Shown piece by piece: positions 24,627 through 50,880 of a stretch of 64,000 bases of DNA (positions are counted from its first letter, which is position 1; each line of letters opens with the position of its first letter). This stretch comes from an uncultured Alphaproteobacteria bacterium (GTDB lineage: Bacteria; Pseudomonadota; Alphaproteobacteria; Methylaequorales; Methylaequoraceae): NCBI GenBank assembly GCA_902540805.1, contig CACBON010000001.1:85777-149776 (forward strand). The letters run 5' to 3'. The translations under genes were made by a program, and so were the position numbers. The notes beneath the pieces were generated by a model. That model had not been told where the DNA came from, did not search any database, and worked only from the letters and a program-made list of their open reading frames with translations.

Positions 24627-25952
24627 GTGAAATTCAAATTACATCTGGCTATCTTAGCATTATTATCCTATCCCCTTATTTCAACCTCTGAAGAACTTTC
24701 CGATGTTCTGAAAGATGCATATAGTTTTTATCCTGACATTAAAAAAAGTAAAACAGAACTAAAAATTTCAGAAAAAGATTTAAAAATTTCAAAAACTGAT
24801 TTTCTACCATCCCTTGATTTTTCAGCTTCACAAGGAAGGAAAATTTCGAAAAGCAATCCTGATACATCTCGAATTAATGATAGCGCAATCAACCCAACTA
24901 CTTTCGACATAGATTTATCTCAACCACTAGGTTACACAAAAGCAATAAATTTCAAGCAAGCTAAAAATAATTTGAACATTGCAAAATTAAGCTTTTACGC
25001 TACAGTTCAAGATGTTTTATTTAAAGCTAGTAGAGCTTATTATACTGTCTTAAAAGATCATTTTCTTTTAGATGTTTCAAAGAGGAATGAAGAAACTCTT
25101 GAAAAAAAACTCGAAGCTACAGAAAAAAGGTTCGAATTTAAAGACGTAACTAAAACCGACGTGTTTCAGGCCAAAGCAAGGTTAGCAGGTGCCACGTCAA
25201 AAAGAATAGAAGCTGAAAATAATTTAGAAATTTCAATTTCTGACTTTAAAACAATTGTTGGTAGAGCTCCAAATATTAGATGGCTTGATTCTAATAATGC
25301 CCAAATTGTCGACGCTAATCCAAAAGATTGGTCAAAATTTGGAGAAATTCCAAAACTTCCAAAATCTTTGGATGATTCAATAAAAACGGGTTTAGAAAAG
25401 AACCCAGATTACAGAAAATTAAAATTACAACTTATGAACTCAAAATTGGATGTAAGAAAAAATAATTTAAATTTTGCACCCGAATTATCTTTGTCTGGAT
25501 CAGTAGGAAAATCACTCGATTCCTCTAGAACAATTGAAAGAACAGATTCATACTCAGTAACTGCTAATGTTACAGTTCCATTATTTAACAAAGGGCATAA
25601 TTTATTGAATTTAGAAAAATCCAAAGATTCTGCTCTTACAGTGATTAGATCAATTGAGACAAAAAAACTTGATTTGCAATTTCAAATTAATTCGGCATGG
25701 AAGAAAATAGAAAGTTCAAAATCAAGTATTGAATCTCTTGAAGTTTCTGTTGAATCAAATTTAATGGCAGTTGAGGGTGTAACTAAAGAAGCAAGTGTTG
25801 GTACCAGAACAACGTTAGAAATTCTAGATGCACAAAAAGATCTAACAGATTCTGAATCAAATTTAGTAAACGCTCAATATCAACTTATTATTTCATCCTT
25901 CGAATTATTGAAATTATGCGGAATTCTAAATTTCGAAACAATTGAAAAATAA
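24627..25952 (+). CDS. tolC: TolC-family outer-membrane efflux/secretion protein (T1SS locus A)
   Basis: 441 aa with a GTG start and signal peptide. Two-repeat TolC architecture with typical LP(S/E)L(D/S).S and coiled-coil segments. Confidence 0.85.
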   Translation: MKFKLHLAILALLSYPLISTSEELSDVLKDAYSFYPDIKKSKTELKISEKDLKISKTDFLPSLDFSASQGRKISKSNPDTSRINDSAINPTTFDIDLSQPLGYTKAINFKQAKNNLNIAKLSFYATVQDVLFKASRAYYTVLKDHFLLDVSKRNEETLEKKLEATEKRFEFKDVTKTDVFQAKARLAGATSKRIEAENNLEISISDFKTIVGRAPNIRWLDSNNAQIVDANPKDWSKFGEIPKLPKSLDDSIKTGLEKNPDYRKLKLQLMNSKLDVRKNNLNFAPELSLSGSVGKSLDSSRTIERTDSYSVTANVTVPLFNKGHNLLNLEKSKDSALTVIRSIETKKLDLQFQINSAWKKIESSKSSIESLEVSVESNLMAVEGVTKEASVGTRTTLEILDAQKDLTDSESNLVNAQYQLIISSFELLKLCGILNFETIEK

Positions 25953-26065
25953 AATTAATTAAAGCTTGCTTAAAATTTAAAAATAAAATAATGTTAAAAT
26001 AGACTGTATCGACTTTTTAAAGTATTAACACAATTTAATTTTTCAACTTAATAAAGGAATTTATT

Positions 26066-27157
26066 ATGGCAGACTTTACTACACTGCCTCCTGACCTTAT
26101 GGATCTCGGCGATGCTGCAGGTACTGCTGCATTCGATGCGATGCAGGGCGGAGGTAGTTTTGACGAATGTATGACTGCAGCAATGGACGTTATGACGGAA
26201 GGTGGAATGCCACCTGAAATCATGGCAAACATGGCTGATACCGCTCAAGGTGCATACAACGATTTTATGGCTGAAAACCCTGGTGCAAGTGCAACAGAGG
26301 CCTTTGACGCTGTAACTGAGGTTATGGATACTCATTTAGACGGATGTCCTGACGGACCATGCACAGATTTTGGAGGTGACATGCCTCCAGTTCCGGACAT
26401 GGGACCAGGTGCTGATGCTCCCCCACCTCCGCCTCCGGGTGATTTACCAGGCGCTCCAGGTGATATGGCAGGCGGTCCCGCTATCGATCCAGCCACTGGA
26501 ATGGCGCCACAACCTCCTGAAGGCCCAGGTGAAGGTGGACCTCCTCCAGGGGATATGGCAGGACCAGACGGACCTCCTCCAGGCGACATGGCAGCAGGTG
26601 GACCAGAATTCGGACCAGCAACCCCTCCTCCTGATATGGGACCAGAGACAATGGGACCTGATGGACCTCCTCCAGGCATGGATATGGATGGAGACGGAAT
26701 GCCCCCTCCACCTCCAGGTGATATGGCAGGCGGTCCCGCTATCGATCCAGCCACTGGAATGGCGCCACAACCTCCTGAAGGCCCAGGTGAAGGTGGTTAC
26801 GATGACGGACCAGCACCAATGGACTATCCTCCAGACGGACCTCCTCCAGGTGAACCAGGAGGACCGGATCCATTATTTGGTGAAGGTGGACCAGCTGGTG
26901 GACCGCCACCACTTGACATGCCTCCAGGAGATCCAATGGGTGAACCAGGACCAATGGATGGCGGACCTGGTGCTCCAGGTGATATGCCTCCTGATGGAAT
27001 GGGCGATATGCATACTCATATGGACGATGCTGGAGCACATCATACACCAACAGACGGGCCTCCAATAGATCCTGCTGCTGGAATGGATCCAGGTGATATG
27101 CCTGCAGATATGCCTCCACCTCCTGACGATCCAAATGATGGTGGTGAGGTAGTCTAA
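26066..27157 (+). CDS. Acidic Pro/Gly/Met/Asp-rich low-complexity protein (candidate T1SS-A cargo); no signal peptide and no RTX repeats
   Basis: 363 aa with SD AAAGGA upstream. Ala/Met/Asp helical-looking N-terminal ~100 aa, then PPPGDMAG-type repeats, and a C-terminal Met/His cluster GDMHTHMDDAGAHH. Own terminator downstream. This frame is chosen over 6 overlapping ORFs because of the SD, the ATG and its consistent repeat sense. Confidence 0.7.
   Translation: MADFTTLPPDLMDLGDAAGTAAFDAMQGGGSFDECMTAAMDVMTEGGMPPEIMANMADTAQGAYNDFMAENPGASATEAFDAVTEVMDTHLDGCPDGPCTDFGGDMPPVPDMGPGADAPPPPPPGDLPGAPGDMAGGPAIDPATGMAPQPPEGPGEGGPPPGDMAGPDGPPPGDMAAGGPEFGPATPPPDMGPETMGPDGPPPGMDMDGDGMPPPPPGDMAGGPAIDPATGMAPQPPEGPGEGGYDDGPAPMDYPPDGPPPGEPGGPDPLFGEGGPAGGPPPLDMPPGDPMGEPGPMDGGPGAPGDMPPDGMGDMHTHMDDAGAHHTPTDGPPIDPAAGMDPGDMPADMPPPPDDPNDGGEVV
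26454..26538 (+). repeat. 85-bp exact direct repeat, copy 1 (copy 2 at 26712..26796)
   Basis: CTCCAGGTGATATGGCAGGCGGTCCCGCTATCGATCCAGCCACTGGAATGGCGCCACAACCTCCTGAAGGCCCAGGTGAAGGTGG occurs twice, 258 bp (86 codons) apart and in frame. It encodes PGDMAGGPAIDPATGMAPQPPEGPGEGG. Confidence 0.9.
26712..26796 (+). repeat. 85-bp exact direct repeat, copy 2
   Basis: Identical to 26454..26538 by direct reading. Confidence 0.9.
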
Positions 27158-27181
27158 AGCTATACTTCTTTAAGTAAAAAA

Positions 27182-27214
27182 CCCTCTCACAGTTTCTGAG
27201 AGGGTTTTTTTTTT
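27182..27214 (+). terminator. Rho-independent terminator between the cargo gene and the ABC gene
   Basis: 8-bp GC-rich stem CCCTCTCA / TGAGAGGG with a 7-nt loop, followed by T10. Confidence 0.8.
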
Positions 27215-27246
27215 GATTAAATCAAAAATTAATATATTATGTTCAC

Positions 27247-29418
27247 ATGGAAGCCATGCGTGGATCTCAAAAATCAATTATTCTAGTTGCAAGACAACTT
27301 GGGGTTCATATTGGTCCAAACGATATTCCAGAAAGATTTCAAATTGAAGATAGAGAGCTAAGAATTTCTGAAATGTGTGACTTAGCTCATTCATTTGATT
27401 TAAAAGCAAAAGCAACCAAAATTAGCGAAAAGGAATTAGTAAAGCTCTTATCTAAAAAACAACAAATCTTAAGACTTAAAAATGGCAGATACATAATAGC
27501 GTTAAGAGTTATTCAAGGTGAAAAAGATGACGATAAGTCAGTTTTATGCCTTGATACTGGTGTAACAAGTCCTAAACCTCAACAAATTAATTTAAAAGAA
27601 TTAAAAAAAGGGTGGGATGGAGAAGTTATTCTATTAAAAGCTAAACTTAAAAAATTTGAAGAGGATAGCGAATTAAAAATTGGATGGTTAATTGGCGAAT
27701 CATTTAGAAATAAATCTGTTATGATTCAGGTTATAATAGTAGCTTTGATTTTGAACATTTTTGCAGTTATACCTGCTGTTTTCATGATGTTGGTGTTGGA
27801 TAAAGTTGTGAACTATGAAGCTTATTCAACTTTATATGTCATAACTTCAGGTGTTATTGTTGCGTATGTATTTAATGGAATACTTGGGTATTTAAAATCA
27901 TATCTTCTTGATTTTTTCTCACAAAAAGTTGAAGCAAAACTTTCAGTTAAAGTTTTTGAAAAATTAATTGCTTTACCAATGCAAAGGTTTCACAAAGAAT
28001 CCGCCACTTTTTTGAGATTCACAGGACAAATATCTCAGATAAAAAGCCTTTTGACTCAAAAAGTTTTCTCAACAGCACTAGACTCAATCAGTTTACTTGT
28101 TTTTGTTCCCATTCTATTTTTTTATAGTCCTTTACTATTTATTGTTGTGTTTTCATTCAGTATATTAGGAGCTTTAGCATCAATGTTTTACTCAAAAAAA
28201 CAAAGAGATTCTCTTGCTGGTTTAAGTAAGGCTGAATCAAAGAGACAAGAATTTATTTCTGTTGCTGTAAACGGAATCGAGAATGTGAAGGGACTTGCTC
28301 TTGAACCTAATTTGAAAGATCAGTGGAGAGATTTGGAAGCAAATTATATTATTGCAAATGAAGAAATGCAAAAAAAGTCAGCAGTTTTAAACAACATTTC
28401 ATCAACCATAAATCAACTTATGACTGCAATGGTTATTTTTGTCGGAGTGCATCTTGTATTTTCTGGATCTCTTTCAGCCGGAATTTTAGTAGGTTTTAAT
28501 ATGCTTGCTGGCAGAGTTTCAAAGCCAATAATTGATCTAGTTACGCTAAAAACAGAAATAACAAAATTAGTTCAATCCCTTCAGATCATATCAGGAATAG
28601 TGGATGCTAACACCGAAACAACTGTTAGAGGCCAAAAACCTCAACTCATGGGACAAGTTAGTTTTAAAAATGTTGAGTTTGGGTACGACGATAACACAAA
28701 AGTATTAAATGATATTGACATTGAAATTAACCCAAGACAGATAATTGGTATAACTGGTAAAAGTGGTTGTGGGAAAAGTACCATTGCAAAACTAATTCAA
28801 GGTTTATATAGACCGCAAGCTGGCATCGTAGCCCTTGATAATATAGATCTACGTCTATTGGACCTGAGTCACGTAAGATCACAGGTTTCATTAGTTGGAA
28901 CAGATAGTTATTTTTTTCCTGGAACAATAAGAGAAACAATAGCAAGTGCAATGCCAAATTCTTCAATGGACAGAATAACTTGGGCTGCAAAAAAAGTTTT
29001 CGCACATGAAGAAATTGAGTCTTATCCTGATGGATATGAAACATTCTTAGAAGAAAATGCTACAAATCTTGCAACTGGCTTAAGACAAAAACTAGCAATT
29101 GCCAGAGCACTTATTAGAAACCCTCGTATCATGATACTTGATGACGCTTTCACAGGTTTTGACGTTGACAGTGAAATAAAATTATACGATGCACTATCAG
29201 ATATTGCTCTTGGCAGAACGATAATTATCGTATCAAACAGGGTTTGGCACCTTCGACTTTGTAATAAAATCTTTGTACTTGAAAAGGGGAAAATATCTCA
29301 ACAGGGTTCTTTTGAAGAATTAAGACAAATTTCAGGTTATTTTGGTCAAACGTATAATAAGCAAATGTCTATTTTGGGAGTTGATAACAAAATTAAATCT
29401 ATAAAGAGGGCCGGGTAA
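27247..29418 (+). CDS. HlyB-type T1SS ABC protein with an N-terminal C39-like (non-catalytic) domain and degenerate ATPase motifs
   Basis: 723 aa: a ~160-aa N-terminal cytoplasmic domain ending KGWDGEVILLK, six-TM region, and an NBD with Walker A GKSGCGKST. Signature is LATGL (not LSGGQ), Walker B is ILDDA (Asp for the catalytic Glu), H-loop position is SNR, and the Q-loop is VGTD. Confidence 0.85.
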   Translation: MEAMRGSQKSIILVARQLGVHIGPNDIPERFQIEDRELRISEMCDLAHSFDLKAKATKISEKELVKLLSKKQQILRLKNGRYIIALRVIQGEKDDDKSVLCLDTGVTSPKPQQINLKELKKGWDGEVILLKAKLKKFEEDSELKIGWLIGESFRNKSVMIQVIIVALILNIFAVIPAVFMMLVLDKVVNYEAYSTLYVITSGVIVAYVFNGILGYLKSYLLDFFSQKVEAKLSVKVFEKLIALPMQRFHKESATFLRFTGQISQIKSLLTQKVFSTALDSISLLVFVPILFFYSPLLFIVVFSFSILGALASMFYSKKQRDSLAGLSKAESKRQEFISVAVNGIENVKGLALEPNLKDQWRDLEANYIIANEEMQKKSAVLNNISSTINQLMTAMVIFVGVHLVFSGSLSAGILVGFNMLAGRVSKPIIDLVTLKTEITKLVQSLQIISGIVDANTETTVRGQKPQLMGQVSFKNVEFGYDDNTKVLNDIDIEINPRQIIGITGKSGCGKSTIAKLIQGLYRPQAGIVALDNIDLRLLDLSHVRSQVSLVGTDSYFFPGTIRETIASAMPNSSMDRITWAAKKVFAHEEIESYPDGYETFLEENATNLATGLRQKLAIARALIRNPRIMILDDAFTGFDVDSEIKLYDALSDIALGRTIIIVSNRVWHLRLCNKIFVLEKGKISQQGSFEELRQISGYFGQTYNKQMSILGVDNKIKSIKRAG

Positions 29419-29424: not shown

Positions 29425-31149
29425 ATGGCTGAAAAAAAAAATATACAACCGGCTGTTAGAAATTTAGCTGCTGGTGATGTGCTTTTTAGAGAAGGTGAAG
29501 TTGGTGACTATGCCTATCAAATAGTAAAAGGAAAAATAGAGGTATGTAAATTCAACGGTGACGAATACGTCACTTTATCAATACTTGAAAAAGGCGCGTT
29601 GTTTGGAGAAATGGCATTAATTGACAAACAACCAAGAAGTGCAATGGCTAGAGCAACTGTTGAGACAACGGTAAAAGAAATTGATCAAAATGCTTTATTA
29701 GGCTATCTCAAAAACTCTCCTCAAACAGCTTTTAATATGATGCAGCAACTTGCAAGCTACGCTAGAAATGCAAACGAAAAATTGTCTGTGGATGCTTTTG
29801 AATCTGGAAATGAAAATGAAAATAACAAAGATCAAGAAGAAGTTTTAACTGAGGAGGAAAAAGAAAATAGATCAAAGAAAAAAATGATGAGTGAATTGTT
29901 GGATGAGTTTGATGACGATATTGATAGAATTAAAACAAAACAGGTACCTCGTTCAGTAAAAATGTCAGTTTATTCATTTGGTTTCCTAATTTTATTTTTA
30001 ATTACTTGGGGCACTATTTCCGAAATTGATACTACAATTTCTGCTTCTGGTAAAATTACCACCGTTGTTCCAAATGTAGAGGTGCAATCAAACTATAATT
30101 CTGTTGTCAAAGAAATACTTGTAAAAAAAGGCGAGAGTGTCAATCAAGGAGACCCACTCGTAACTTTCGATGCTACACTTCAAAGAGCGGATAAAATGAA
30201 ACTTGATTATCAGCTTTCAGTTGTAAATTCAAAAATTGACAGACTAAAAAAGCAATCATTGTTAAGGAATAATGTTTCGGTTGCAAACCCAAATGACGAA
30301 AGACAAAGCAGAATCTTCAAAGATAAAAAAGACCAATATTTAGCAAAGATTGCTTCATTAGATCAACAAATAGGTTCTACAGAAGACGATTTAAAGTTTA
30401 TCAAGGAACAACTTGATATACAAAAGCAGCTAGAAGATTCAAAGTTGGAGTTATTTGAACTTGATCTTGTAGCAGAGTCACAAGTTTTAGCTGAAAAAAA
30501 CAAAAGGTTATCTTTAGAAAAAGAATTCACAAAAACTAGCAATAAACTAAGCGAATTAAAATCTAATAGAAAAGAATATAATAGCCAATTTTTTGGAGGA
30601 ATAAACGATGAGCTTGTTGCATTAGAGGATCAAAGAATGTCGCTACAAGAAGATGTAAAAAAACTTGAAAGACAACAAACTGATGTAGTGGTGAGAGCGC
30701 CGTCTGACGGTATGATTCTAGACCTTCATTCTTTATATCCTGGAGCAGTAATAACACAAGGTAAAAGTGTTGTTACATTGGTACCAACAGGTGTGGAATT
30801 ATTAACTGTTTTTGATGTTGATCCCTCTGATATTAGCAAACTAATTCCGGATACGTCTGTTAAAATTCAACTTAATGCCCTTCCAGCACAAAAACACGGT
30901 GAGTTAAAAGGAAAGCTTATTTATGTTTCTGCTGACACAATTGATAAAGACGTCGATGGAAAACCAGGAAATTTTTATAGGGCTAGGGCTCAAATAACAG
31001 AAAATGAGTTAAAAGATATTCCTCCAGGATTTAATTTAATGCCAGGAATGAAAGTTTCAGGAAAGTTTAGAGTTGGGCAAAGAAGATTAATTACGTATTT
31101 TATTTATCCACTTATAAGAACTCTTGGTAATAGTTTTGCAGAACCATGA
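29425..31149 (+). CDS. HlyD-family T1SS membrane-fusion protein with an N-terminal cyclic-nucleotide-binding domain
   Basis: 574 aa. CNB domain with phosphate-binding cassette FGEMALIDKQPRSAMARA, an acidic linker, one TM (VYSFGFLILFLITWGTI), then HlyD lipoyl/coiled-coil/beta-barrel regions (GKITTVVPN...GDPLVTFD ... VRAPSDGMI). Confidence 0.85.
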   Translation: MAEKKNIQPAVRNLAAGDVLFREGEVGDYAYQIVKGKIEVCKFNGDEYVTLSILEKGALFGEMALIDKQPRSAMARATVETTVKEIDQNALLGYLKNSPQTAFNMMQQLASYARNANEKLSVDAFESGNENENNKDQEEVLTEEEKENRSKKKMMSELLDEFDDDIDRIKTKQVPRSVKMSVYSFGFLILFLITWGTISEIDTTISASGKITTVVPNVEVQSNYNSVVKEILVKKGESVNQGDPLVTFDATLQRADKMKLDYQLSVVNSKIDRLKKQSLLRNNVSVANPNDERQSRIFKDKKDQYLAKIASLDQQIGSTEDDLKFIKEQLDIQKQLEDSKLELFELDLVAESQVLAEKNKRLSLEKEFTKTSNKLSELKSNRKEYNSQFFGGINDELVALEDQRMSLQEDVKKLERQQTDVVVRAPSDGMILDLHSLYPGAVITQGKSVVTLVPTGVELLTVFDVDPSDISKLIPDTSVKIQLNALPAQKHGELKGKLIYVSADTIDKDVDGKPGNFYRARAQITENELKDIPPGFNLMPGMKVSGKFRVGQRRLITYFIYPLIRTLGNSFAEP

Positions 31150-36174: not shown

Positions 36175-36189
36175 TTAAAGGAAACAATT

Positions 36190-36546: not shown

Positions 36547-36548
36547 GT

Positions 36549-42505: not shown

Positions 42506-45500
42506 TTATATTGGACCAAAAGTGAAATTTGTTGCTCCAATGTTATCATTGTCAACACCAGTTAAGGTTGCTAAACCAAAAAGTTCTCCATTGTCAATAA
42601 CACCATTTCCACCGTCTGACCATCCATAGACATGACCATTAGTACTTGTATCTCCTGTTACAAGAATAAAATCAGTTGGACTTGAAATTGCAGTTGAACC
42701 ATCCGTTGTAACTTTGAAACTTGTGAGCTGATTTTTTACCCCTGTTGTTGTATTTGCTGATGAAAATTGTGATGTAAAATTGAAAACTGATGGAAGAACA
42801 TTTGAATTTGATCCCATATTATAAGTTGTACCGTGGAGTTGTACCATATTCACAACCGAAGCATCTCTTGCGTACGCACTTGTTTGAACTGAGGTAGAGA
42901 ACTGTAAAATATCACCTCCAGCTCCAACTGTGAAGTCCGTTATTGTGTCATTTCCTTCGGTCAAATCACCAAAATAAAAAGTATCTTGCCCAGCATTACC
43001 AGTTAAAGAATCACCGCCAAGTGCTCCCCAGAAAACGTCATTACCTGATCCACCTTTAAAAATATCTGCCCCACTGTAACCCTCAAAGCGCCATGCGGAA
43101 GATTCCGCAGATTTATCAACGTTATCAACATTACTTGATCCTATAAATGTAGTCCCACTACTTCCACCTCCACTTCCAGATTCAGCAGCTTCTTCCTCTT
43201 CAACATTCTCAAAAACACTTGGATCTTCATAATAAAAACCTTCAACAGGTTCTCCACCAAAGGGATCAGGACCATATGGATCAAAGCCTGCGGGACCAAA
43301 ACCTCCAGGAACAAAGCCTGAAGGACCAAAACCTCCAGGACCAAAGCCTCCAGGACCAAAGCCTGCAGGACCAAATCCTCCAGGACCAAAACCTCCAGGA
43401 CCAAAACCATCAGGACCAAATCCACCAGTGCCTCCTGGACCAAAGCCATCAGGACCAAATCCACCAGGGCCTCCTGGACCAAAGTCTCCTGGTCCACCCG
43501 GACCAAAATCACCGGGACCACCAGGACCAAAGTCTCCGGGACCTCCACCTGGATCAAAACCTAAAGGTCCACCAGGACCTCCATGAAAACCACCTCCATC
43601 ATTACCTGAAAAACCCGAGCCAATTACGGGAGCAGTTGTAACCGGTGCAATTGGAGCAAAACCTACTTGAGCTGGGATATAAGCACCTGGCTGTTGAACA
43701 GTACCAGGTGGTTGAAAAGAACCTGGTGGAAGAAAAGTTCCAAAGGAGCCTTGATCACCGCCCGAGCCAGGATCAAAATTTCCAGGTCCTACATCTGGAC
43801 TAAAGTCTCCTGGACCACCTGGACCAAAGTCTCCTGGACCACCAGGACCAAAATCTCCTGGGGCATCAAATCCACCCGGACCACCAGGACCAAAGTCTCC
43901 TGGACCACCGGGACCAAAGTCTCCTGGACCACCAAATCCAACTGGACCACCCGGGCCAAAGTCCCCTGGACCACCAGGACCAAAGTCTCCTGGACCACCT
44001 AGACCAAAGTCTCCTGGACCACCAGGACCAAAATCTCCTGGACCACCAGGACCAAAATCTCCAGGACCGCCAGGACCAAAATCTCCAGGACCTCCAAAAC
44101 CAAAATCATCAGGGCCACCGGGACCAAAATCTCCAGGACCACCGGGACCAAAATCTCCAGGACCTCCCGGACCAAAGTCTCCTGGGCCTCCAGGACCAAG
44201 AGGACCCCCTGCGAATTCATCACCTCCAACTGTTGCTGACAAAGGATCTCCTCCGAAACCACCTGGTGGTGGTGGAATTCCAGCAGCTGCTGCTGCCTCT
44301 GCCATTGCTTCTTCAGGAGATAAACCGGCTGCCAATGCAGTTTCAAAAGCCTCTCTTGCTGCTGCGTCTTGTTCAGGTGTAGGACCATCAGGACCGAAAT
44401 CTCCAGGTGGTAAAGGTTCTCCATCAGGTCCAATCGGTGGACCATCAGCAAGTGGTTCTCCATCAGGTCCTATTGGTGGGCCTCCAGGACCAAAATCTCC
44501 AGGGGGTAAGGGTTCTCCATCAGGTCCAATCGGTGGACCGCCTTCTCCCGGTGGTAAGGGTTCTCCGTCCGGTCCAATCGGTGGGCCGTCTCCTTCGGGA
44601 GGTCCTTCTTCTGCTAGTGGTTCTCCATCAGGTCCAATTGGCGGGCCCTCTTCTCCTTCTGGAGGACCTTCTGCTTCTAGTGGATCCTCTCCTTCTTCAC
44701 CCTCTGGAAGACCTTCTCCTTCCTCTCCCTCTGGAGGACCTTCTCCCTCCTCTTGCAGTTCCTCGTCAATAGCCTCCTCTTCTACTGCCTCTTCTTCCCC
44801 TTGAGACTCCTCTTCTTGAACTTGCTCCTGCTGTTGTTCTTGAGGCGGTGGAGGTGGTTGTGGTGTTGGAGCAACCACAGGAGTTGGTGGTAAAACATTT
44901 AAAGCTGTACCATAATTTGCTTGAATTTGTGCTGCACTTAAAATAATTGGTGGTGGAGGTGGGGCTGTAAAACTCGTTATACTCGTGGTCGCACCGACTT
45001 GTGCTAGAACTTGAGTTCCCCCAGCATTACTCACAGATATTTGTCCTACTCCTCCATCAGCATCTTGAAGAAGTGTAAAGGAGTTTTCATTGCCTTCAAC
45101 TGCAGCTTTACCTGCAACCGTAGTTCCTCTTATCCCAATAGTTGCGACAGGTGTCGAAACTTTCATGGCATCAGGTCCAGTTTTAGCAATTTCGCCACTC
45201 ACAAAGCTAAAAGCTCCTTCAACCATATCAACGGCCATACTTCCAGTTCCAGTTGCAGGGTCATAAACAAGTTCATCTAAAACCATTTTTCCACCCTCTG
45301 ATAATGAGAGAGTTGTTTTATCAAGAAATACTAATCCAATCGCTCCTGACCCAGTAGTTTCTACAGTATCACCCTGAAAAACTGGATCTCCGGTTGCAAG
45401 ATTTACAGTTGTTCCGTCCAAACGAGTTGCTTTAGCCTCTCCTGTAACACTGGAAACTTCTCCAATCGAAAGTGCGTTTGCATTATTGGCTTGCACGTAT

Positions 45501-45781
45501 TGTCCAGGTGTTAATGATCCAGATAAAGTATCAATTAAAGTGCCTTTGAGTAATAAACCGTTTTCAGTTTTGAGTGAAGGAAGTTCAAAGTTCGTAAAAA
45601 AATCTACTAATAATATTTCATCGCCAGCAGGTGAAGTTATTAGAAGGTCTGTTTGCGTTTTCGCAAAATTGGCCTTCGGTAACCAGCCTGGTAATCCATT
45701 AATGTCAATAGTGCTGCCAGCGTAGATCTTAGTTAAAGAACCACTGTCGTTCAGATTTATTTGTTGACTATTTCCTATCAT
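42506..45781 (-). CDS. FecR-domain / Pro-Gly elastomer-like repeat / RTX large secreted protein (T1SS-B cargo 2), tandem paralog of 39768..42434
   Basis: 1091 aa. The N-terminal ~310 aa are near-identical in long runs to the 888-aa protein. Spacer made of GPPIGPDGEPL, GPGGPGDF and GFGPG repeats. Short RTX block GGSGNDVFWGALGGDSLTGNAGQDTFYF. Shared C-terminal domain (SNSNxLPxVFNFT ... DNDN). Confidence 0.85.
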   Translation of the reverse strand: MIGNSQQINLNDSGSLTKIYAGSTIDINGLPGWLPKANFAKTQTDLLITSPAGDEILLVDFFTNFELPSLKTENGLLLKGTLIDTLSGSLTPGQYVQANNANALSIGEVSSVTGEAKATRLDGTTVNLATGDPVFQGDTVETTGSGAIGLVFLDKTTLSLSEGGKMVLDELVYDPATGTGSMAVDMVEGAFSFVSGEIAKTGPDAMKVSTPVATIGIRGTTVAGKAAVEGNENSFTLLQDADGGVGQISVSNAGGTQVLAQVGATTSITSFTAPPPPPIILSAAQIQANYGTALNVLPPTPVVAPTPQPPPPPQEQQQEQVQEEESQGEEEAVEEEAIDEELQEEGEGPPEGEEGEGLPEGEEGEDPLEAEGPPEGEEGPPIGPDGEPLAEEGPPEGDGPPIGPDGEPLPPGEGGPPIGPDGEPLPPGDFGPGGPPIGPDGEPLADGPPIGPDGEPLPPGDFGPDGPTPEQDAAAREAFETALAAGLSPEEAMAEAAAAAGIPPPPGGFGGDPLSATVGGDEFAGGPLGPGGPGDFGPGGPGDFGPGGPGDFGPGGPDDFGFGGPGDFGPGGPGDFGPGGPGDFGPGGPGDFGLGGPGDFGPGGPGDFGPGGPVGFGGPGDFGPGGPGDFGPGGPGGFDAPGDFGPGGPGDFGPGGPGDFSPDVGPGNFDPGSGGDQGSFGTFLPPGSFQPPGTVQQPGAYIPAQVGFAPIAPVTTAPVIGSGFSGNDGGGFHGGPGGPLGFDPGGGPGDFGPGGPGDFGPGGPGDFGPGGPGGFGPDGFGPGGTGGFGPDGFGPGGFGPGGFGPAGFGPGGFGPGGFGPSGFVPGGFGPAGFDPYGPDPFGGEPVEGFYYEDPSVFENVEEEEAAESGSGGGSSGTTFIGSSNVDNVDKSAESSAWRFEGYSGADIFKGGSGNDVFWGALGGDSLTGNAGQDTFYFGDLTEGNDTITDFTVGAGGDILQFSTSVQTSAYARDASVVNMVQLHGTTYNMGSNSNVLPSVFNFTSQFSSANTTTGVKNQLTSFKVTTDGSTAISSPTDFILVTGDTSTNGHVYGWSDGGNGVIDNGELFGLATLTGVDNDNIGATNFTFGPI
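43280..43560 (-). repeat. Coding tandem repeats, 15-bp period (GFGPG units) merging into 24-bp GPGGPGDF units
   Basis: Reiterated CCAGGACCAAA(R)CC units on the + strand. Protein: GFGPGGFGPGGFGPAGFGPGGFGPGGFGPSGF... Confidence 0.8.
43795..44205 (-). repeat. Coding tandem repeats, 24-bp period (GPGGPGDF octapeptide, about 15+ units)
   Basis: Reiterated CCAAAGTCTCCTGGACCACCAGGA-type units. Protein: GPGGPGDFGPGGPGDFGPGGPGDF... Confidence 0.85.
44395..44650 (-). repeat. Coding repeats encoding GPPIGPDGEPL (five copies with variable linkers)
   Basis: GGTTCTCCATCAGGTCCAATCGGTGG recurs. Protein: GPPIGPDGEPLAEE / ...LPPGE / ...LPPGDFGPG / ...LADG / ...LPPGDF. Confidence 0.8.
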
Positions 45782-45836
45782 ATCCAGTTTAACTATAGGC
45801 TAAATACTACTATTTTAAAAGTTAAAAAGGCCTAAT

Positions 45837-47153
45837 TTATTCAACAAATTCAATTGATTCAATTGAAAGTCCTCCCATTAAACTCAAGAGAGTGTAACTA
45901 TTTATGAGAACCTCAATCTTAGCTGCAATCGCATCTGCTTGAGCATTAATTAGAGCAGTTTCACCCCCTAAAACATCAAGTAGAGTACGGTTTCCTGCCT
46001 GTCTTTCTTGTCTTGCAAGCTCTAAAAATTCACCAGAGATTCTTGCCTGATTTGTAAGAAATTGAGCATTTTGTTGAGCTGTTTTTAATCCGTCCCATGT
46101 AGTTCTTAACATTTGTTTAATCATATCTTCTTGATCTCTTATTCTTGTAGATGTTGCTAGATAAGATTCAATCGCAGCATCTTTACCAGCGTATTCCGAT
46201 AAACTTAGATTTAATGGATATGCAAAATCTAACTTTGCAGAGGTTTCTCTTTTGAATCCTACTACACCACCAAAATCTTGTTTTTCTGAATGACTCACTA
46301 TCCCTTTTACAGTTGGAAAAAGAGAAGATTTAGCTGTGTTTATTGCCTCTTTACCAATATCCTCTGTAATTCTTGCTGCAATCAGTGAGGGATTATTTTT
46401 CATTGTTATTTCCTCTGCCTCTTCCAGCGATTTAGGTAATTTGTCAAAAACAGATTTAAGGAGTACCAAAGAATTTAAATTATCTGGAAATGAATTATAA
46501 ACATATTCAAATTCATGTTTGGAAGTGGCTAATACACCTTCAAACTGAATTAAACGTGCCTGAGCACCAGCTAATTGAGTTTTTGCTTGGAGAACATCCG
46601 AAGTCAGTCCACCTCCTGCAGTTACTGCTGCATCTTCGAGTTCAGTTTGTTTTTTTATGTTTGCAACAGATTGTCTTGCGAACCGAACACTTTCCCTTGA
46701 TTGAATAATTCTCAAATATGCTGAAATTGCTCTTAATAAAATGTCATTTTTAATTTGTGTTTCAGTTGCCCGTGTTTGTTTTAATGATAATCTTGAAGTT
46801 TCTACTGTTGATTTAGTCAAACCAAAATCTGTAATTGTTTGAGTAATTTTTGCTGTTGCGTCCCTTGCCATCAATTGCGTGTTGTTTCCCGGTCCATATT
46901 TTATAATATTTTCATGTCCGTAGTTAGCTGTAACGTCTAACGAAGGAAAATAACCGCCCCTGGATTGTTTTAGTCTTAACTTAGCAGCCTCTATATCACT
47001 CTTAGTTGCTAATATTGTCTTATGATTGTTCAAAACTGACTTAAGTGCGGCTTTTAGATTATAGGGTATAACCTCAGCATTTTGGTCTTGCGCGACTAAC
47101 AATGATCCTGAACCGATCGCCAAAATAAAACATGCTATTAAAAATTTTCCCAT
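45837..47153 (-). CDS. tolC: TolC-family outer-membrane protein (T1SS locus B)
   Basis: About 438 aa from the ATG at 47153 (MGKFLIACFILAIGSGSLLVA signal peptide); the track start 47171 is a TTG. TolC two-repeat architecture, paralogous to 24627..25952. Confidence 0.85.
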   Translation of the reverse strand: MGKFLIACFILAIGSGSLLVAQDQNAEVIPYNLKAALKSVLNNHKTILATKSDIEAAKLRLKQSRGGYFPSLDVTANYGHENIIKYGPGNNTQLMARDATAKITQTITDFGLTKSTVETSRLSLKQTRATETQIKNDILLRAISAYLRIIQSRESVRFARQSVANIKKQTELEDAAVTAGGGLTSDVLQAKTQLAGAQARLIQFEGVLATSKHEFEYVYNSFPDNLNSLVLLKSVFDKLPKSLEEAEEITMKNNPSLIAARITEDIGKEAINTAKSSLFPTVKGIVSHSEKQDFGGVVGFKRETSAKLDFAYPLNLSLSEYAGKDAAIESYLATSTRIRDQEDMIKQMLRTTWDGLKTAQQNAQFLTNQARISGEFLELARQERQAGNRTLLDVLGGETALINAQADAIAAKIEVLINSYTLLSLMGGLSIESIEFVE

Positions 47154-47222
47154 ACTACAATTTATCCACAACTTATTGACTGTGAATAACTTAAAACGAC
47201 AATTTCTTACATTAGTTTATTT

Positions 47223-47945
47223 TTAACATGATTTTTTTGAATAATCTAGATATAAACTTTTTCCCTCTAAAAGTTTTAGGAAATTTGAAAAAAGTAGTTC
47301 TGAGTTATCATTATACCTTATTTCCTGTTTCAGCCTTCCAGCGAGTTGCAATCCAACTTGAGGACCAAACATTAAAGATGATAAGATATCAGCGTCTAAA
47401 ATTATTTTTTCAAGATCATCTTTTACATTTTCAGGTTTTACTGGGAAAAAGGTACTCTCAAATATTCTCTTGATCCTCTTCAATTCTTTAAAATTAAAGA
47501 CTTTCTTGAATAAAATTTTTTCTAATCCGTCATAACTTTTTAATTCTTGATAGTAGGGCTTGCTCATGAGTATCCTCCTACCCTGATGATTCATATCATG
47601 AGTGAGGGCTATTATGACTAATAAAAGCCTATCTTTATATTTTAAATTTATCTGTTTTCCTAATATGCATGAAATTACCAAAACTGACTTAAAGTGATGG
47701 GAATCATGGTATGTATTGAAACAGGTATTTCTTAAACATAATTTTGATAATTTTCTAATAATAGATTTATAGTCTTTTAACTTAAAAACTTTTAGCTCTT
47801 TTAAACATATAATTGCTATCGAGTATAAATCTGGTTGTTTATGATTTGACAAAACATATTTTTTTAAAATACATTTTGTTCTAGGCCAATTCTTAACTAT
47901 GTAATTTAAACTTGGTAAACCTTTATCTAACGGAAGATTCCTCAT
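47223..47945 (-). CDS. HD-superfamily phosphohydrolase with class-I cyclic-nucleotide-phosphodiesterase-like motifs
   Basis: About 240 aa from the ATG at 47945, which forms an ATGA overlap with the cyclase stop. NTYHDSHHFKSV then, ~35 aa later, ALTHDMNHQG (compare PDE YHNxxHAxDV ... HDxxHxG), and a later DADILSS. Confidence 0.5.
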   Translation of the reverse strand: MRNLPLDKGLPSLNYIVKNWPRTKCILKKYVLSNHKQPDLYSIAIICLKELKVFKLKDYKSIIRKLSKLCLRNTCFNTYHDSHHFKSVLVISCILGKQINLKYKDRLLLVIIALTHDMNHQGRRILMSKPYYQELKSYDGLEKILFKKVFNFKELKRIKRIFESTFFPVKPENVKDDLEKIILDADILSSLMFGPQVGLQLAGRLKQEIRYNDNSELLFSNFLKLLEGKSLYLDYSKKSC

Positions 47946-50248
47946 TTGCTTTTCATTACCCAAACACCATTCCAATCGGTTGGTTTTTCCTCAATTAACA
48001 AATTGCACCTCTCAATGTATGTTTTTGATAAGTTATCTTGAGGATTTGATTTTAGACATTCTTTAAAAGATGAGATAGCTTGTTCAAAACCTCCACTTTT
48101 ATAATGTTTTCTACCTTCATTAAAATGATTAACAACATCCATTAAATTTGGAAAAGTTTTATCATTGTGATAATCTAAAACTTCGTGAACACCAATCGGT
48201 TCGTTTTTTCCTTTAACAACTACATCATCTATATATCTTATGCGATAAGTACCTTTAAGTTTTTTAAATGTATAGTCACTAATTAATATTCTTGCACTGT
48301 ATTGTTTGCATGCACTCTCTAAACGTGCAGCTAAGTTCACACCGTCACCAATCATCGTATAATCCATTCTTTTTTGTGATCCGATATTTCCTGCCACAAT
48401 TTTGTCGGTATTTAATCCTAATCCCATATCAACAGCTGGTTTTCCATCTTTTTCTCTGTGCTCGTTCCACTCCCATAATCTTTTGATCATATTGATACCA
48501 GCTTTAACGCCCCTATCTTCATCATCTTCATGTGATATTGGAAGACCGAATGCAGCCATTATTGCATCCCCAATAAATTTATCTAACATCCCGCCCTGTT
48601 CAGATATACATTCAACCATTATTTCAAAATACTCATTCAATAATTTGACAGTACCTTGAGCACCTAAAGACTCTGTAATTGTTGTAAAGCTTCTCAGATC
48701 AGAAAACAATAAAGTTGCAGTTGTTTCTAGCCCTCCCATTATTTCAGATCCATCCTCTAATAATTGATCTGCTATTCCAGGATCCATATATCTAGACATT
48801 GTTGATTTCATTCTTTTTTCTGAAGAAATATCTTCAAACATTAATAGTGTACCCAGAAAATTATCTGATTGGTCTGTTCTACCGTCACTATCCTCATTTA
48901 TAAGTGGAAGTATTGTCAAGTTTACTGATATTTTTTCTTCTTTTTCTGTTTCATAATCGAAAACCTCTATTTCTGCGTCAACAATAATTTCAGGTTCTTT
49001 TGATTCACCAACACACTTGATTTTCTCGTATATCCATTTTTTATTTCCTGAAAAAAAATCTTTAGATTGTTTTTTTATTATTTCTAAATCTTTAGTTCGC
49101 AATATTTTTAAGCCAGATTTGTTACAAGTAACAATTTCTTCTTCACTGTTAATTGTAATAACTCCGTTAGACATACTAGAAAGCATACTTTCGTTATACT
49201 TTCTAGATTTAGATACATCTTCGAAAAGTTTGGCATTTTCAAGCGCAATTGCAACTTGTTGAGTAAATGCCTTTAATCTAGATTCATCTTCATCTGTAAA
49301 TTTTCCACCAATCTTATTTAAAACTTGTGTACAACCGATAACCTTTCCTTCTTTATTTACAACAGGTACACATAAAATCGAACGAGTAAAATATCCTGTT
49401 TGTTTATCGAATGAAGGGTTGAATCGTAAATCAGCGTAAGCGTAAGGAATATTCATTGATTTGCCAGAGGAAAAGACAGACCCTGCTATTCCTGCTGTGT
49501 TTGGAAGTCTTATCTCTCCAATGCCTTCACCCATAGCTACCCGTGAAAATAATTCATTTGTTTTTTCGTCATTTAAAAACAAAGTAGCTCTGTCAGCATT
49601 AAGCATTCGTGTTGCCTCTTCCATTACTCTTTGCAGTAAGGCTCCTAGATCAATTTCAGCTGTCACATCAGAAACTATACTTATAAACTCCATTTCTTTG
49701 GCTCTTTTTTTTTCAAAATATTCTGTATTTTGTGCATTTTGTATTGATACAGCAGCTTGGGTGGCAATTGCCTCTGTAAAGACAAGATTATCTTTTGAAA
49801 ATCTACCTTTTTTTTTATTTAAAACTTGAATAACCCCTATTGTTTGTCCGTCGACGGTTTTAACTGGACAGCAAATCATATTTTTTGTCTTATAACCAGT
49901 TTCCTGATCAACTTCTTTATTAAAACGAGAATCGGCATAAACGTCATGAATCACCTCTCCAGATTGGTTTTGAAAAATTGCGCCAGCTATTCCAACATTG
50001 TTTAAAATTCTAATTTCGCGAGTCAAATCACCTTGGGCAACTCTTGAATAAAGTTCATTAGTTTCGTTATCATTTAAAAATAATGTTCCTCTATCTGCAT
50101 CTAACTCATTAGTAACGAATTCTATAAGTGTCCATAAAATCTCCTCCAAAGATTTAAGTCCAGCAATTTTTCGTGAAATCTGAAGTAAAAGTTCAGTTCT
50201 TCTTAGTTTCTCCAAGGTTTGGACTATGTTTTCATTAGCATTTTTCAT
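47942..50248 (-). CDS. CyaB1-like adenylate cyclase: GAF-GAF-PAS-class III cyclase with a C-terminal TPR-like tail
   Basis: 768 aa. Two PDE/CyaB-type GAFs (ADSRFNKEVDQETGYKTKNMICCPV; ADLRFNPSFDKQTGYFTRSILCVPV), a PAS-like region (NGVITINSEEEIVTCNKSG), and a cyclase domain LFSDLRSFTTITE...DKFIGDAIMAAFGLP...RMDYTMIGDGVNLAARLES. Confidence 0.9.
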   Translation of the reverse strand: MKNANENIVQTLEKLRRTELLLQISRKIAGLKSLEEILWTLIEFVTNELDADRGTLFLNDNETNELYSRVAQGDLTREIRILNNVGIAGAIFQNQSGEVIHDVYADSRFNKEVDQETGYKTKNMICCPVKTVDGQTIGVIQVLNKKKGRFSKDNLVFTEAIATQAAVSIQNAQNTEYFEKKRAKEMEFISIVSDVTAEIDLGALLQRVMEEATRMLNADRATLFLNDEKTNELFSRVAMGEGIGEIRLPNTAGIAGSVFSSGKSMNIPYAYADLRFNPSFDKQTGYFTRSILCVPVVNKEGKVIGCTQVLNKIGGKFTDEDESRLKAFTQQVAIALENAKLFEDVSKSRKYNESMLSSMSNGVITINSEEEIVTCNKSGLKILRTKDLEIIKKQSKDFFSGNKKWIYEKIKCVGESKEPEIIVDAEIEVFDYETEKEEKISVNLTILPLINEDSDGRTDQSDNFLGTLLMFEDISSEKRMKSTMSRYMDPGIADQLLEDGSEIMGGLETTATLLFSDLRSFTTITESLGAQGTVKLLNEYFEIMVECISEQGGMLDKFIGDAIMAAFGLPISHEDDEDRGVKAGINMIKRLWEWNEHREKDGKPAVDMGLGLNTDKIVAGNIGSQKRMDYTMIGDGVNLAARLESACKQYSARILISDYTFKKLKGTYRIRYIDDVVVKGKNEPIGVHEVLDYHNDKTFPNLMDVVNHFNEGRKHYKSGGFEQAISSFKECLKSNPQDNLSKTYIERCNLLIEEKPTDWNGVWVMKSK

Positions 50249-50262
50249 ATTTTAACTTATTG

Positions 50263-50880
50263 TTATTTTTGGATTTTTTTTTCATAATTTTTTATTACTT
50301 TTTCTAATTCGTCTCTAAGTGACTGCGTTGAATTTTTAAGCTGTTTAATTTCATCACTGGAGTTTAAAACCGCTTTTTGAATTGCTTGTTTTTTTGAAAA
50401 CTTTGATTCAACTAATTCGTCTCTTAAAGCAGATGTTGCATCTTTTAATTCGTTAATTTCGAGTGAAGATTTTTTTATCGCATTTTGTATAGCTTCTTGT
50501 TTTTCGAACCTTAAATTTTCAAGCTCTTCTCTTAATGCGGAGCAAGACAACTTTAGTTGTTTTATTTCATTAGCTGAAGCCTGAATTTGAATTTGAATTG
50601 CTTTTCTTTTTTCAAATCTTAGCTTTTCCATTTGATTTCTAAGTTCTTTTACAGAAGATTTTAACTGGTTTATTTCATCATTTTTTAATGAAATAGCTTT
50701 TTGTACTGCAGTATTTTTTTCAAAAATAGATTGATCTAATTTTTCTCTAAGTGAATTAATTGTAGAAAACAAATCTTCTGTTTCTTGATTATTCTCAGAC
50801 TTAATTTTTTGAATAAGTTCATTTAACTCAAAGCTAAAGCTAGGATTTTCTAATTTATATTTTTCAATAAATTTTCCCAA
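50263..50880 (-). CDS. Coiled-coil protein made of four tandem 36-aa repeats
   Basis: 205 aa. Repeat unit A[IV]Q.A......EI[KN][QE]LK.S...LR[DEN][EQ][LM]E..[RK]F[ES]K... Sits 14 nt upstream of the cyclase gene. Confidence 0.6.
   Translation of the reverse strand: MGKFIEKYKLENPSFSFELNELIQKIKSENNQETEDLFSTINSLREKLDQSIFEKNTAVQKAISLKNDEINQLKSSVKELRNQMEKLRFEKRKAIQIQIQASANEIKQLKLSCSALREELENLRFEKQEAIQNAIKKSSLEINELKDATSALRDELVESKFSKKQAIQKAVLNSSDEIKQLKNSTQSLRDELEKVIKNYEKKIQK
50278..50709 (-). repeat. Four tandem 108-bp (36-codon) coding repeats
   Basis: Protein residues ~58-201: AVQKAISLKNDEINQLKSSVKELRNQMEKLRFEKRK / AIQIQIQASANEIKQLKLSCSALREELENLRFEKQE / AIQNAIKKSSLEINELKDATSALRDELVESKFSKKQ / AIQKAVLNSSDEIKQLKNSTQSLRDELEKV... 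Confidence 0.75.

Follow-up and report, generated by a model that had tools for sequence, protein, structure and literature searches.

The window analysed here, a stretch of 64,000 nucleotides from an uncultured alphaproteobacterium (GenBank assembly GCA_902540805.1, contig CACBON010000001.1, positions 85,777 to 149,776), carries an island of about 26 kb in which two convergent gene sets for type I secretion systems (T1SS) lie together with genes of cyclic AMP (cAMP) signaling. The central element is a HlyD-type T1SS adaptor fused to a cyclic-nucleotide-binding (CNB) domain, called CNB-HlyD below. The map of open reading frames (ORFs) was rebuilt from the letters, and the proteins of the window were scanned with Pfam and NCBIfam. 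In this low-GC marine bacterium, the plus block of the island runs TolC1, an ORF rich in Pro, Gly, Met and Asp, ABC1, CNB-HlyD, a CHASE2 cyclase, CNBa, CNBb, DUF1538, P-II and a protein of 99 amino acids (aa). The minus block, in transcription order, runs coiled-coil protein, GAF-GAF-PAS cyclase, a 240-aa phosphodiesterase (PDE)-like protein, TolC2, an RTX protein of 1091 aa, an RTX protein of 888 aa, ABC2 and HlyD2. A first-pass annotation, made from the letters alone, had listed these genes and domains, and all were recovered where it had placed them: the ORF map agreed, the profile models upheld the CNB, cyclase and HlyD assignments, and each of the two T1SS gene sets is complete with ABC protein, adaptor and TolC. 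The intergenic gaps measure -4 to 113 nt, and the reported overlaps at 31146, 33972 and 47942 are real.

The features of the first system, T1SS-1, are the following:

24627-25952, plus strand: TolC1, TolC-family outer-membrane channel of T1SS-1 (Pfam OEP, 190.7 bits)
26066-27157, plus strand: putative T1SS-1 cargo, a 363-aa acidic low-complexity protein rich in Pro, Gly, Met and Asp and ending in ...GGEVV (no family match in Pfam or NCBIfam)
27176-27210, plus strand: intrinsic terminator or attenuator hairpin between the cargo gene and the ABC1 gene, with a 14-bp stem and a T-run; the strongest such site of the island
27247-29418, plus strand: ABC1, HlyB-type exporter with a C39-like N-domain (ABC_membrane, ABC_tran, Peptidase_C39)
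29425-31149, plus strand: CNB-HlyD, with a predicted cytoplasmic domain binding cyclic nucleoside monophosphates (cNMP), linker, amphipathic helix, one transmembrane helix and periplasmic HlyD adaptor (Pfam, NCBIfam, AlphaFold2)

In CNB-HlyD, the model cNMP_binding (PF00027) matches residues 12-97 with 70.5 bits against a cut-off of 27.5, and the HlyD T1SS adaptor model TIGR01843 reaches 218.9 bits against a cut-off of 208.65. The AlphaFold2 (AF2) model of the protein (mean predicted local distance difference test, pLDDT, of 80) consists of a beta-barrel (residues 11-86), helices (88-123), a disordered acidic linker (117-142), a helix (144-170), a transmembrane helix (176-198) and the lipoyl, long-hairpin and beta-barrel domains of HlyD. 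Since this order puts the CNB domain N-terminal to the single transmembrane helix, the sensor is predicted to be cytoplasmic. It sits where HlyD has its short N-terminal cytoplasmic tail, which in E. coli is needed for substrate-dependent recruitment of TolC. The E. coli tail is about 60 aa long, whereas in the window about 175 aa of CNB domain, linker and helix take its place.

The phosphate-binding cassette of the adaptor is FGEMALIDKQPRSA. Across fusions that are 26-39% identical to the window adaptor, its Gly, Glu, Arg and Ala do not vary in one family alignment (A6); in a second one (A2) each is either invariant or conserved to at least 90%. Such conservation across divergent fusions argues for selection on ligand binding. 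Alternatively, the CNB domain could be a structural, oligomerisation or cargo-docking module that replaced the short HlyD tail and is no nucleotide sensor. CNB folds are indeed known to serve other ligands and protein contacts as well, the AF2 model shows a long disordered linker, and the weak similarity to TIGR03896 is uninformative on the ligand. However, the ligand-contacting Gly, Glu, Arg and Ala have been kept in very divergent fusions, and degenerate CNB domains normally lose the residues of the phosphate cassette, so that a purely structural role appears quite improbable. Membership in TIGR03896 itself (cyc_nuc_ocin) was rejected: its members have two CNB domains and the model a cut-off of 161 bits, whereas each protein here has one CNB domain and reaches 29-39 bits. 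A literature search on cNMP- or cAMP-binding HlyD proteins and on cAMP-controlled T1SS found nothing relevant, in agreement with the first-pass annotation, which knew of no such adaptor.

TolC1 scores 224.0 with TIGR01844, just under the cut-off of 225.15, and its position is kept in all related loci that reach that far. The best NCBIfam match of ABC1 is type_I_sec_HlyB (TIGR01846; E = 3e-146, below the subfamily cut-off). Its Peptidase_C39 match is weak (E = 1.1e-5) and begins at profile position 20; as residues 1-40 contain no Cys, the C39-like domain is probably non-catalytic.

The genes for making, binding and presumably degrading the messenger, with one partner gene, are distributed over both strands:

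31146-33521, plus strand: predicted class III adenylate cyclase with CHASE2 sensor (CHASE2, 159 bits; Guanylate_cyc, PF00211, 71.4 bits)
33535-33975, plus strand: CNBa, stand-alone cNMP-binding protein of 146 aa without output domain (cNMP_binding, 54.6 bits; cassette GELSLILGENRTA)
33972-34439, plus strand: CNBb, stand-alone cNMP-binding protein of 155 aa (cNMP_binding, 63.6 bits; cassette GEMALILKQNRSA)
47223-47945, minus strand: HD-superfamily protein resembling class I PDEs, putative cAMP phosphodiesterase, 240 aa (240/250; profile and fold)
47942-50248, minus strand: predicted class III adenylate cyclase of GAF-GAF-PAS type, CyaB1-like, with C-terminal TPR (PF00211, 81.4 bits)
50263-50880, minus strand: coiled-coil protein of 205 aa with four repeats of about 36 aa, partner gene of the GAF cyclase (sequence, synteny)

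Both catalytic domains were aligned to P. aeruginosa CyaB (3r5g) and Synechocystis Cya2 (2w01). They have the two metal-binding Asp residues, a Lys where the guanylate cyclase Cya2 has a Glu, and DYT or DYS at the second specificity position. In the CHASE2 cyclase these are the metal motifs FCDVRGFT and YMGDC, the Lys of IDKYMGD, and DYS; in the GAF-GAF-PAS cyclase they are FSDLRSFT and FIGDA, the Lys of LDKFIGD, and DYT. Because Lys and Thr/Ser fit the established specificity rules of class III cyclases, both enzymes are predicted to be of the adenylate type, and their annotated role as cAMP makers is supported by these residues (Lys in IDK[FY][IM]GD, Thr/Ser in DY[TS]). The start codon of the CHASE2 cyclase overlaps the stop codon of CNB-HlyD (ATGA). 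The GAF-GAF-PAS cyclase shares its domain order and adenylate-type catalytic residues with Anabaena CyaB1; unlike CyaB1 it has an extra C-terminal TPR region and is paired with the coiled-coil and PDE-like genes. The coiled-coil gene lies upstream of it across all relatives, even where the cyclase is only 70-74% identical. In the closer relatives the coiled-coil gene is itself preceded by a gene for a DUF192 protein (50901-51383 in the window) whose N-terminal part has a hydrophobic segment. As annotated, each of the three cNMP-binding domains has a G-E...R-[ST]-A cassette; some relatives (loci L019-L023 and L028) have a single stand-alone CNB gene.

The candidate for the degrading enzyme is the 240-aa protein. 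It has no Pfam match, including PF00233, and is too short in comparison with the class I PDE domain of about 270-330 aa. Homologues were found only in this clade (127 proteins, some with the HD domain PF01966). In 30 homologues H80, H84, H116, D117, H120, G122 and D186 are invariant, and the family fits an H...H...HD...D metal site within the motifs YH[ND]xxH and HDxxHxG. When the family profile was compared with the PDB, it matched only 3',5'-cNMP phosphodiesterases, RhoPDE (5vyd) best (E = 4.4e-5), followed by PDE5, PDE9 and PDE10; the alignments span about the first half to two-thirds of the protein. With the AF2 model (pLDDT 81), Foldseek returned PDE catalytic domains and YpgQ-type HD hydrolases at TM values of 0.5-0.6 and weak E-values. 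The annotated degrading enzyme is thus PDE-like by profile and fold match. We regard it as a remote PDE-like HD protein and no demonstrable member of PF00233, which probably breaks cAMP. With a conserved, ligand-competent CNB domain fused to HlyD beside adenylate cyclases and a PDE-like enzyme, the most economical reading is that the adaptor would be cAMP-responsive.

The first-pass annotation had proposed that cAMP gates the channel or channels for the elastomer-like surface proteins. For the RTX proteins this is not supported as it stands: their genes sit with T1SS-2, whose adaptor HlyD2 has no sensor. The cargo of T1SS-1 is likely the Pro-rich protein and not the RTX proteins. We take it as the cargo because comparative neighborhoods place such ORFs beside ABC and CNB-HlyD genes. 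An ORF of the same kind adjoins them in the clade of the window and in 6 of the 11 other lineages whose neighborhoods were sampled outside this clade. These ORFs are acidic, consist to 68-86% of P, G, D, E, M and A, and often contain EGDMPPP-like repeats. At their C-terminus an acidic residue precedes two or three hydrophobic residues, which resembles the extreme C-terminal motif of protease- and lipase-type T1SS substrates; the C-terminus of the window protein is kept within its clade. The C-termini are:

window: GGEVV
Terasakiella (L115): DTDVV
L120: DVDVV
L116: VDPIV
L122: PNEVI
L117: DEIA
L123: DEMA

The position of the hairpin between the cargo gene and the ABC1 gene is conserved as well. 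Of the 29 related loci examined (L001-L033), most have a hairpin with a T-run in this position but with differing stem sequences, and that the stems vary yet still pair points to compensatory change. In the classic T1SS layout an attenuator separates the substrate gene from the transporter genes downstream, and the arrangement seen here suggests attenuation, by which the cargo transcript would far exceed the transporter transcript, as at hlyA and hlyB. The operons implied in the first-pass annotation are not supported as they stand. In so compact a genome, tight gaps are weak evidence for operons, and the conserved strong terminator splits the cargo and ABC genes. A sigma-70 promoter scan gave no enrichment over shuffled sequences and was uninformative.

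In its overall design T1SS-1 is like the HlyB-HlyD-TolC system of E. coli. Both have a three-part architecture, an ABC protein with an apparently non-catalytic C39-like domain, an adaptor with cytoplasmic N-terminus, one transmembrane helix and a long periplasmic helical hairpin, and a cargo gene upstream of the ABC gene with a terminator between them. In contrast to the haemolysin system, the cargo in the window has no RTX repeats and is acidic and rich in Pro, Gly and Met, and the locus brings a dedicated TolC of its own.

A short helical motif, AAREAF[DE]TAL.AG.SPE[EQ]AMAEAA, occurs in proteins of both cargo classes. It lies within both RTX proteins (about residues 444-475 of the 888-aa and 472-503 of the 1091-aa protein) and recurs in the cargo proteins of L115, L116, L117 and L120 (z = 3.6-5.4 in Smith-Waterman comparisons with shuffles); in the cargo of the window itself the same comparison was not significant (z = 0). 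The strict pattern 'AF..AL..G.SPEEA' is too narrow for what RTX and cargo proteins have in common. The motif may be a shared recognition or chaperone-like element. Two relatives of the cargo, at L116 (11653-14736) and L122 (3-632), are extremely rich in Met (24%) and have repeats of the MxxHM/MGGM type. Such repeats resemble the copper-binding Met motifs of CopA/PcoA-type proteins, which by analogy hints at an extracellular metal-binding role of these relatives.

To follow the island through related genomes, a synteny scan was done with one genome per species. It gave 34 loci with an adaptor at 64-100% identity, all of them in uncultured marine Alphaproteobacteria labelled Pelagibacteraceae, Rickettsiales or Alphaproteobacteria. 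Where the contig allows, the order is Sel1, TolC1, cargo, ABC1, CNB-HlyD, CHASE2 cyclase, CNB (one or two genes), DUF1538, PII, PII-like, HlyD2, ABC2 and RTX, and the full order is kept down to 64-74% adaptor identity. Metagenome contigs on which the GAF cyclase is at least 80% identical show the order DUF192, coiled-coil, GAF cyclase, PDE-like, TolC2, RTX genes, ABC2 and HlyD2. On contigs where it is 70-74% identical (L079, L083, L090), the pair of coiled-coil and GAF-cyclase genes is convergent with a CHASE2 cyclase, and ordinary T1SS ABC/HlyD or TolC genes are found nearby in L090 and L083. By this second arrangement, cyclases and T1SS genes also stay together in the distant relatives. In L090 (344-8599), an ordinary ABC and an ordinary HlyD gene (no CNB) come next, and then MotA/MotB-like genes.

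The 34 species-representative genomes and the metagenome contigs thus show that the arrangement is conserved, which bears on the chance juxtaposition that the first-pass annotation had itself envisaged. If two unrelated T1SS loci and unrelated signaling genes had merely come to lie side by side, tight packing would be no surprise, since streamlined genomes pack unrelated genes tightly, and synteny within one clade can be simple inheritance. Yet the full order persists at the lowest adaptor identities, sensor and adaptor form a single protein, unrelated lineages also have cyclases close to the fusion, and the distant relatives keep the GAF cyclase by the CHASE2 cyclase and T1SS genes although the arrangement is different. 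A chance origin is disfavoured by these findings and very improbable.

A word-indexed search with the adaptor yielded close relatives, and an exhaustive search of 1.84 billion representatives revealed distant fusions as well. About 35 further clusters (at 50% identity) match across both the CNB and the HlyD part at 26-39% identity to the window adaptor, most of them with an intact cassette. The carriers belong to Alpha- and Gammaproteobacteria and Magnetococcales; among them are the cultured Terasakiella sp. A23, a Paracoccaceae metagenome-assembled genome (MAG), TMED87, a Gammaproteobacteria MAG and Magnetococcales HHB-1. In these carriers the fusion bears no annotation beyond 'HlyD family T1SS adaptor' or 'cNMP-binding domain protein'. 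In Terasakiella sp. A23 (GCA_033100395.1, contig JAWLVJ010000008) the genes lie at 129-134 kb, and the cargo-like protein there is a 412-aa protein of PPPEGDM type.

In the 11 sampled lineages, a HlyB-like ABC gene lies directly upstream of CNB-HlyD in all ten neighborhoods that could be judged. A class III cyclase is close to the fusion (within about 5 kb) in only two of the 11 lineages, which are unrelated to each other, and the statement that the system travels with dedicated cyclases does not hold in general outside the clade. In one of the two, L116, the order is cyclase, ABC, CNB-HlyD, DUF1538, PII, PII-like and a Met-rich protein of 1027 aa. In the other, L121, ABC and CNB-HlyD are followed at some distance by a CNB-GGDEF protein and then, on the opposite strand, by a CHASE2 cyclase and a FecR protein. 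These three genes of L121 lie at 10237-14250. The CNB-GGDEF protein could be a relay from cAMP to cyclic di-GMP (c-di-GMP); the FecR protein is small. With nine lineages lacking a nearby cyclase, dedicated cyclases are the exception; they are specific to the clade of the window rather than general.

A possible interpretation of these results is that export of the Pro-rich cargo by T1SS-1 is gated by cAMP through CNB-HlyD, the core of the device being cargo, ABC1 and CNB-HlyD. From the sequence data we give this reading a probability of about one half. The CHASE2 receptor cyclase, responding to periplasmic or extracellular signals, and the GAF-GAF-PAS cyclase, responding to cytoplasmic ones, would make cAMP, and the PDE-like HD protein would remove it. 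cAMP would bind to the CNB domain of the adaptor and alter the contact of the cytoplasmic segment with the cargo, with the ABC protein or with both, and export of the cargo would thereby be licensed or blocked post-translationally. Domains, motifs, conserved gene order, the distribution of the fusion and its association with this type of cargo were observed; that the ligand is cAMP, in which direction it acts and which proteins touch each other is inferred. The second, convergent T1SS would export the two adhesin-like RTX proteins, which would probably be held in TolC2 by an N-terminal retention module. The gating of secretion by cAMP put forward in the first-pass annotation is hence plausible for T1SS-1 and its Pro-rich cargo; for the RTX adhesins the case is circumstantial.

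Several findings weigh against cAMP gating. No cyclase is near CNB-HlyD in nine of the 11 other lineages, and all 34 genomes with the full island come from one clade. Adjacency and small gaps carry less weight because the genome is compact. CNB domains can bind other ligands or none, and the loop of the phosphate cassette in the adaptor (residues 64-70) is of low confidence in the AF2 model. The cargo was assigned by neighborhood and C-terminal motif and not by a recognised secretion-signal model, and the components of T1SS-2 bear no sensor.

The remaining genes of the plus block are the following:

34477-36174, plus strand: double DUF1538 membrane protein of the UmpA/UmpB-like cation/proton antiporter family (DUF1538, 358.6 bits)
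36190-36546, plus strand: PII-like protein a (P-II, 31.5 bits; the PDB matches are PII-like proteins)
36549-36848, plus strand: 99-aa protein, probably a divergent PII-like paralogue (no Pfam match; hhalign)

For the first of these only the DUF1538 family is supported, as the matches to the equivalog models of the UmpAB Na,Li,K/H+ antiporter, at 203 and 175 bits, stay below their cut-offs (490 and 500). The 99-aa protein aligns to PII-like protein a in hhalign with a probability of 87% (E = 3.7e-6, 39 columns), and its profile search against the PDB gave nothing significant. An SbtB-like, i. e. cAMP-binding, identity of the PII-like proteins found no support in the PDB search, which gave generic PII and PII-like matches only. 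The succession of DUF1538, PII and PII-like genes (34477-36848) also follows CNB-HlyD in the Paracoccaceae MAG at L116 (8985-11377). Between the window and L116 this module is 71% and 66% identical (71% for DUF1538), compared with only 29% for the ABC and adaptor genes. It may be a transporter with PII-like nucleotide sensors that is tied to the same signaling, or a mobile module.

This bears on a further explanation, in which signaling and secretion genes are neighbors and not parts of one machine: the local cyclases, the PDE-like protein, the stand-alone CNB proteins and the PII-like proteins would mainly control something else, for example the DUF1538 cation transporter, in analogy to PII-like proteins that regulate transporters, and CNB-HlyD would do no more than sample the cell-wide cAMP level. 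This is conceivable, since most CNB-HlyD loci elsewhere have no nearby cyclase, the DUF1538 module is tight and far better conserved than the T1SS genes, and the genome is compact. Against it, the module follows CNB-HlyD in two very divergent contexts, which suggests a link to the secretion module, the proximity of a cyclase recurs independently in L116 and L121, and the start codon of the CHASE2 cyclase overlaps the end of the adaptor gene. We hold such mere neighborhood to be rather unlikely.

The genes of T1SS-2, all on the minus strand, are:

36850-38121, minus strand: HlyD2, adaptor of T1SS-2 without sensor domain (TIGR01843, 289.7 bits, above the cut-off of 208.65)
38126-39715, minus strand: ABC2, short (529 aa) PrtD/LssB-like exporter without N-terminal C39-like domain (ABC_tran)
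39768-42434, minus strand: adhesin-like RTX protein of 888 aa with N-terminal FecR/retention-module domain, acidic and Pro-rich spacer, RTX repeats and C-terminal domain (FecR, 27.6 bits; HemolysinCabind, 62.4 bits)
42506-45781, minus strand: adhesin-like RTX paralogue of 1091 aa with GPGGPGDF and GFGPG tandem repeats (FecR and RTX, repeat scan)
45837-47171, minus strand: TolC2, TolC-family channel of T1SS-2 (OEP, 179.7 bits; TIGR01844, 190.6 against a cut-off of 225.15)

ABC2 starts at its transmembrane domain, with a gap of only 52 nt to the upstream gene; the LssB, PrtD and HlyB models match across the transmembrane and nucleotide-binding domains, all below their cut-offs. Besides the RTX repeats, the two RTX proteins have C-terminal domains. 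The middle regions of the RTX proteins contain repeats including acidic stretches and PPIGPDGEPL, and the gene of the 1091-aa protein has two tandem arrays, one of 24 nt x 17 (GPGGPGDF, 17 copies) and one of 15 nt x 10 (GFGPG, 10 copies). The first 285 or so residues are highly conserved among paralogues and orthologues (76% mean column identity). The profile of this N-domain gave one significant PDB match, to the N-domain of the ice-binding adhesin MpIBP (5ix9; E = 2.5e-7, 71 residues), which is the template for modelling the LapA retention module. The NCBIfam model retention_LapA (NF033682) matches all 14 of 14 RTX N-domains below its threshold, with 26 bits for the window copy against a cut-off of 50, and the region it scores is also called FecR by Pfam. 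A TAAG-type cleavage motif was not found in the RTX proteins, only SAAQ. The RTX proteins are thus candidates for LapA/MpIBP-like adhesins and may be held in TolC2.

T1SS-2 could then be a Lap-like surface-adhesin system in which display or release depends on cAMP and not on c-di-GMP, with the stand-alone CNB proteins or a periplasmic factor as mediators; this would be compatible with cAMP-gated export by T1SS-1. The retention-module-like N-domains, the dedicated TolC, the RTX repeats and repetitive extender regions and the conserved order of GAF cyclase, PDE-like, TolC2 and RTX genes favor this view, and such likenesses are shared with LapA/LapBCE-LapD-LapG of Pseudomonas fluorescens and MpIBP of Marinomonas primoryensis, as is the presence of second-messenger genes nearby. 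However, the window holds no LapG-type protease and no LapD-type receptor (both may be encoded in other parts of the genome; housekeeping genes make up the flanks), the TAAG site is missing, ABC2 lacks the N-terminal domain typical of LapB-type transporters, and retention_LapA stays below threshold (up to about 26 bits). Further differences from the LapA and MpIBP systems are that the retention domain begins about 100 residues in and scores as FecR, and that predicted adenylate cyclases and a PDE-like protein take the place of GGDEF/EAL proteins. We propose this view as a tentative possibility.

The link of T1SS-2 to cAMP is indirect and circumstantial, consisting of the neighborhood, the two stand-alone CNB proteins and a possible contact between FecR domain and CHASE2. 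FecR-CHASE2 adjacency is documented elsewhere (PMC5498481, PMC5192318). In Sinorhizobium meliloti the CHASE2 adenylate cyclases CyaD1/CyaD2, Clr and the FecR-domain protein SMc02177 belong to one signaling system (PMC5498481), and in Burkholderia a CHASE2 kinase is paired with a LysM-FecR protein (PMC5192318). As FecR proteins recur as neighbors or partners of CHASE2 proteins, L121 included, a contact of the RTX N-domain with the CHASE2 cyclase would be reasonable by analogy. The window shares with S. meliloti the combination of an alphaproteobacterial CHASE2 receptor cyclase and an extracytoplasmic FecR-domain protein. Whereas the output there is a transcription factor of the CRP type, the receivers in the window are the adaptor fusion and two stand-alone CNB proteins.

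With respect to the wider context, no CRP-type helix-turn-helix protein, LapD or LapG was detected among the Pfam-scanned ORFs of the window, and the island is flanked by housekeeping genes. The GC content rises to 41-47% in the low-complexity cargo and RTX genes (26000-28000 and 40000-46000) and is 25-33% elsewhere. This rise is due to the demand for Pro, Gly and Ala codons and does not necessarily imply foreign origin. Upstream of the plus block (20177-24377) lie genes for an HDAC-family deacetylase, an HD_4 protein, a 304-aa protein without family match and a Sel1-repeat protein. The Sel1, HDAC and 304-aa genes hold their position in relatives; no link to the island was shown. Further away, a 398-aa protein without Pfam match lies beside an AAA+ ATPase (12348-14385) in an AT-rich stretch (25-28% GC) that also contains several small ORFs (15167-19107).

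No publication on a cNMP sensor fused to a T1SS adaptor turned up; the nearest precedents are the c-di-GMP/LapD-LapG control of adhesins and the annotation links of TIGR03896. TIGR03896 and the cyanobacterial 'cyclic nucleotide-regulated ABC bacteriocin/lantibiotic exporter' we take to be an annotation-level precedent for exporters that may be cNMP-regulated. As in the window, a cNMP-binding domain is genetically coupled to ABC/HlyD peptide export in the bacteriocin-type transport-associated proteins. Those systems come from cyanobacteria, their substrates are leader-cleaved peptides, and their CNB forms a two-domain protein of its own or resides on the ABC protein. In the window, by contrast, it resides on the adaptor, and the N-domain of ABC1 has no catalytic Cys.

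T1SS are usually viewed as constitutive once their parts are made, and to our knowledge control by c-di-GMP and LapD-LapG is the only well-studied post-translational control of a T1SS; it acts on an adhesin that has already been exported. A cAMP receptor in the adaptor would, if our interpretation is correct, be a switch on the translocon itself, at the very segment of HlyD that couples substrate binding to the recruitment of TolC, and would give a direct handle on how the adaptor signals across the inner membrane. In its broadest form, which we consider unlikely, CNB-HlyD fusions would represent a widespread undescribed class of T1SS with a cAMP checkpoint on the adaptor and a new family of acidic, disordered Pro/Met-rich cargo, maybe with an extracellular role in metal binding or as matrix. 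In the marine clade of the window, secreted or retained RTX adhesins would then signal through their FecR domains to the periplasmic CHASE2 domain of the cyclase encoded by the gene that overlaps the adaptor gene, so that the state of the cell surface would feed back on export. The module is found in very abundant, streamlined marine bacteria that devote about 26 kb to it, and its apparent cargo is a previously unnoticed protein family. As the cultured Terasakiella sp. A23 has the cargo-ABC-CNB-HlyD module, the gating of a T1SS by cAMP would be testable in this organism.

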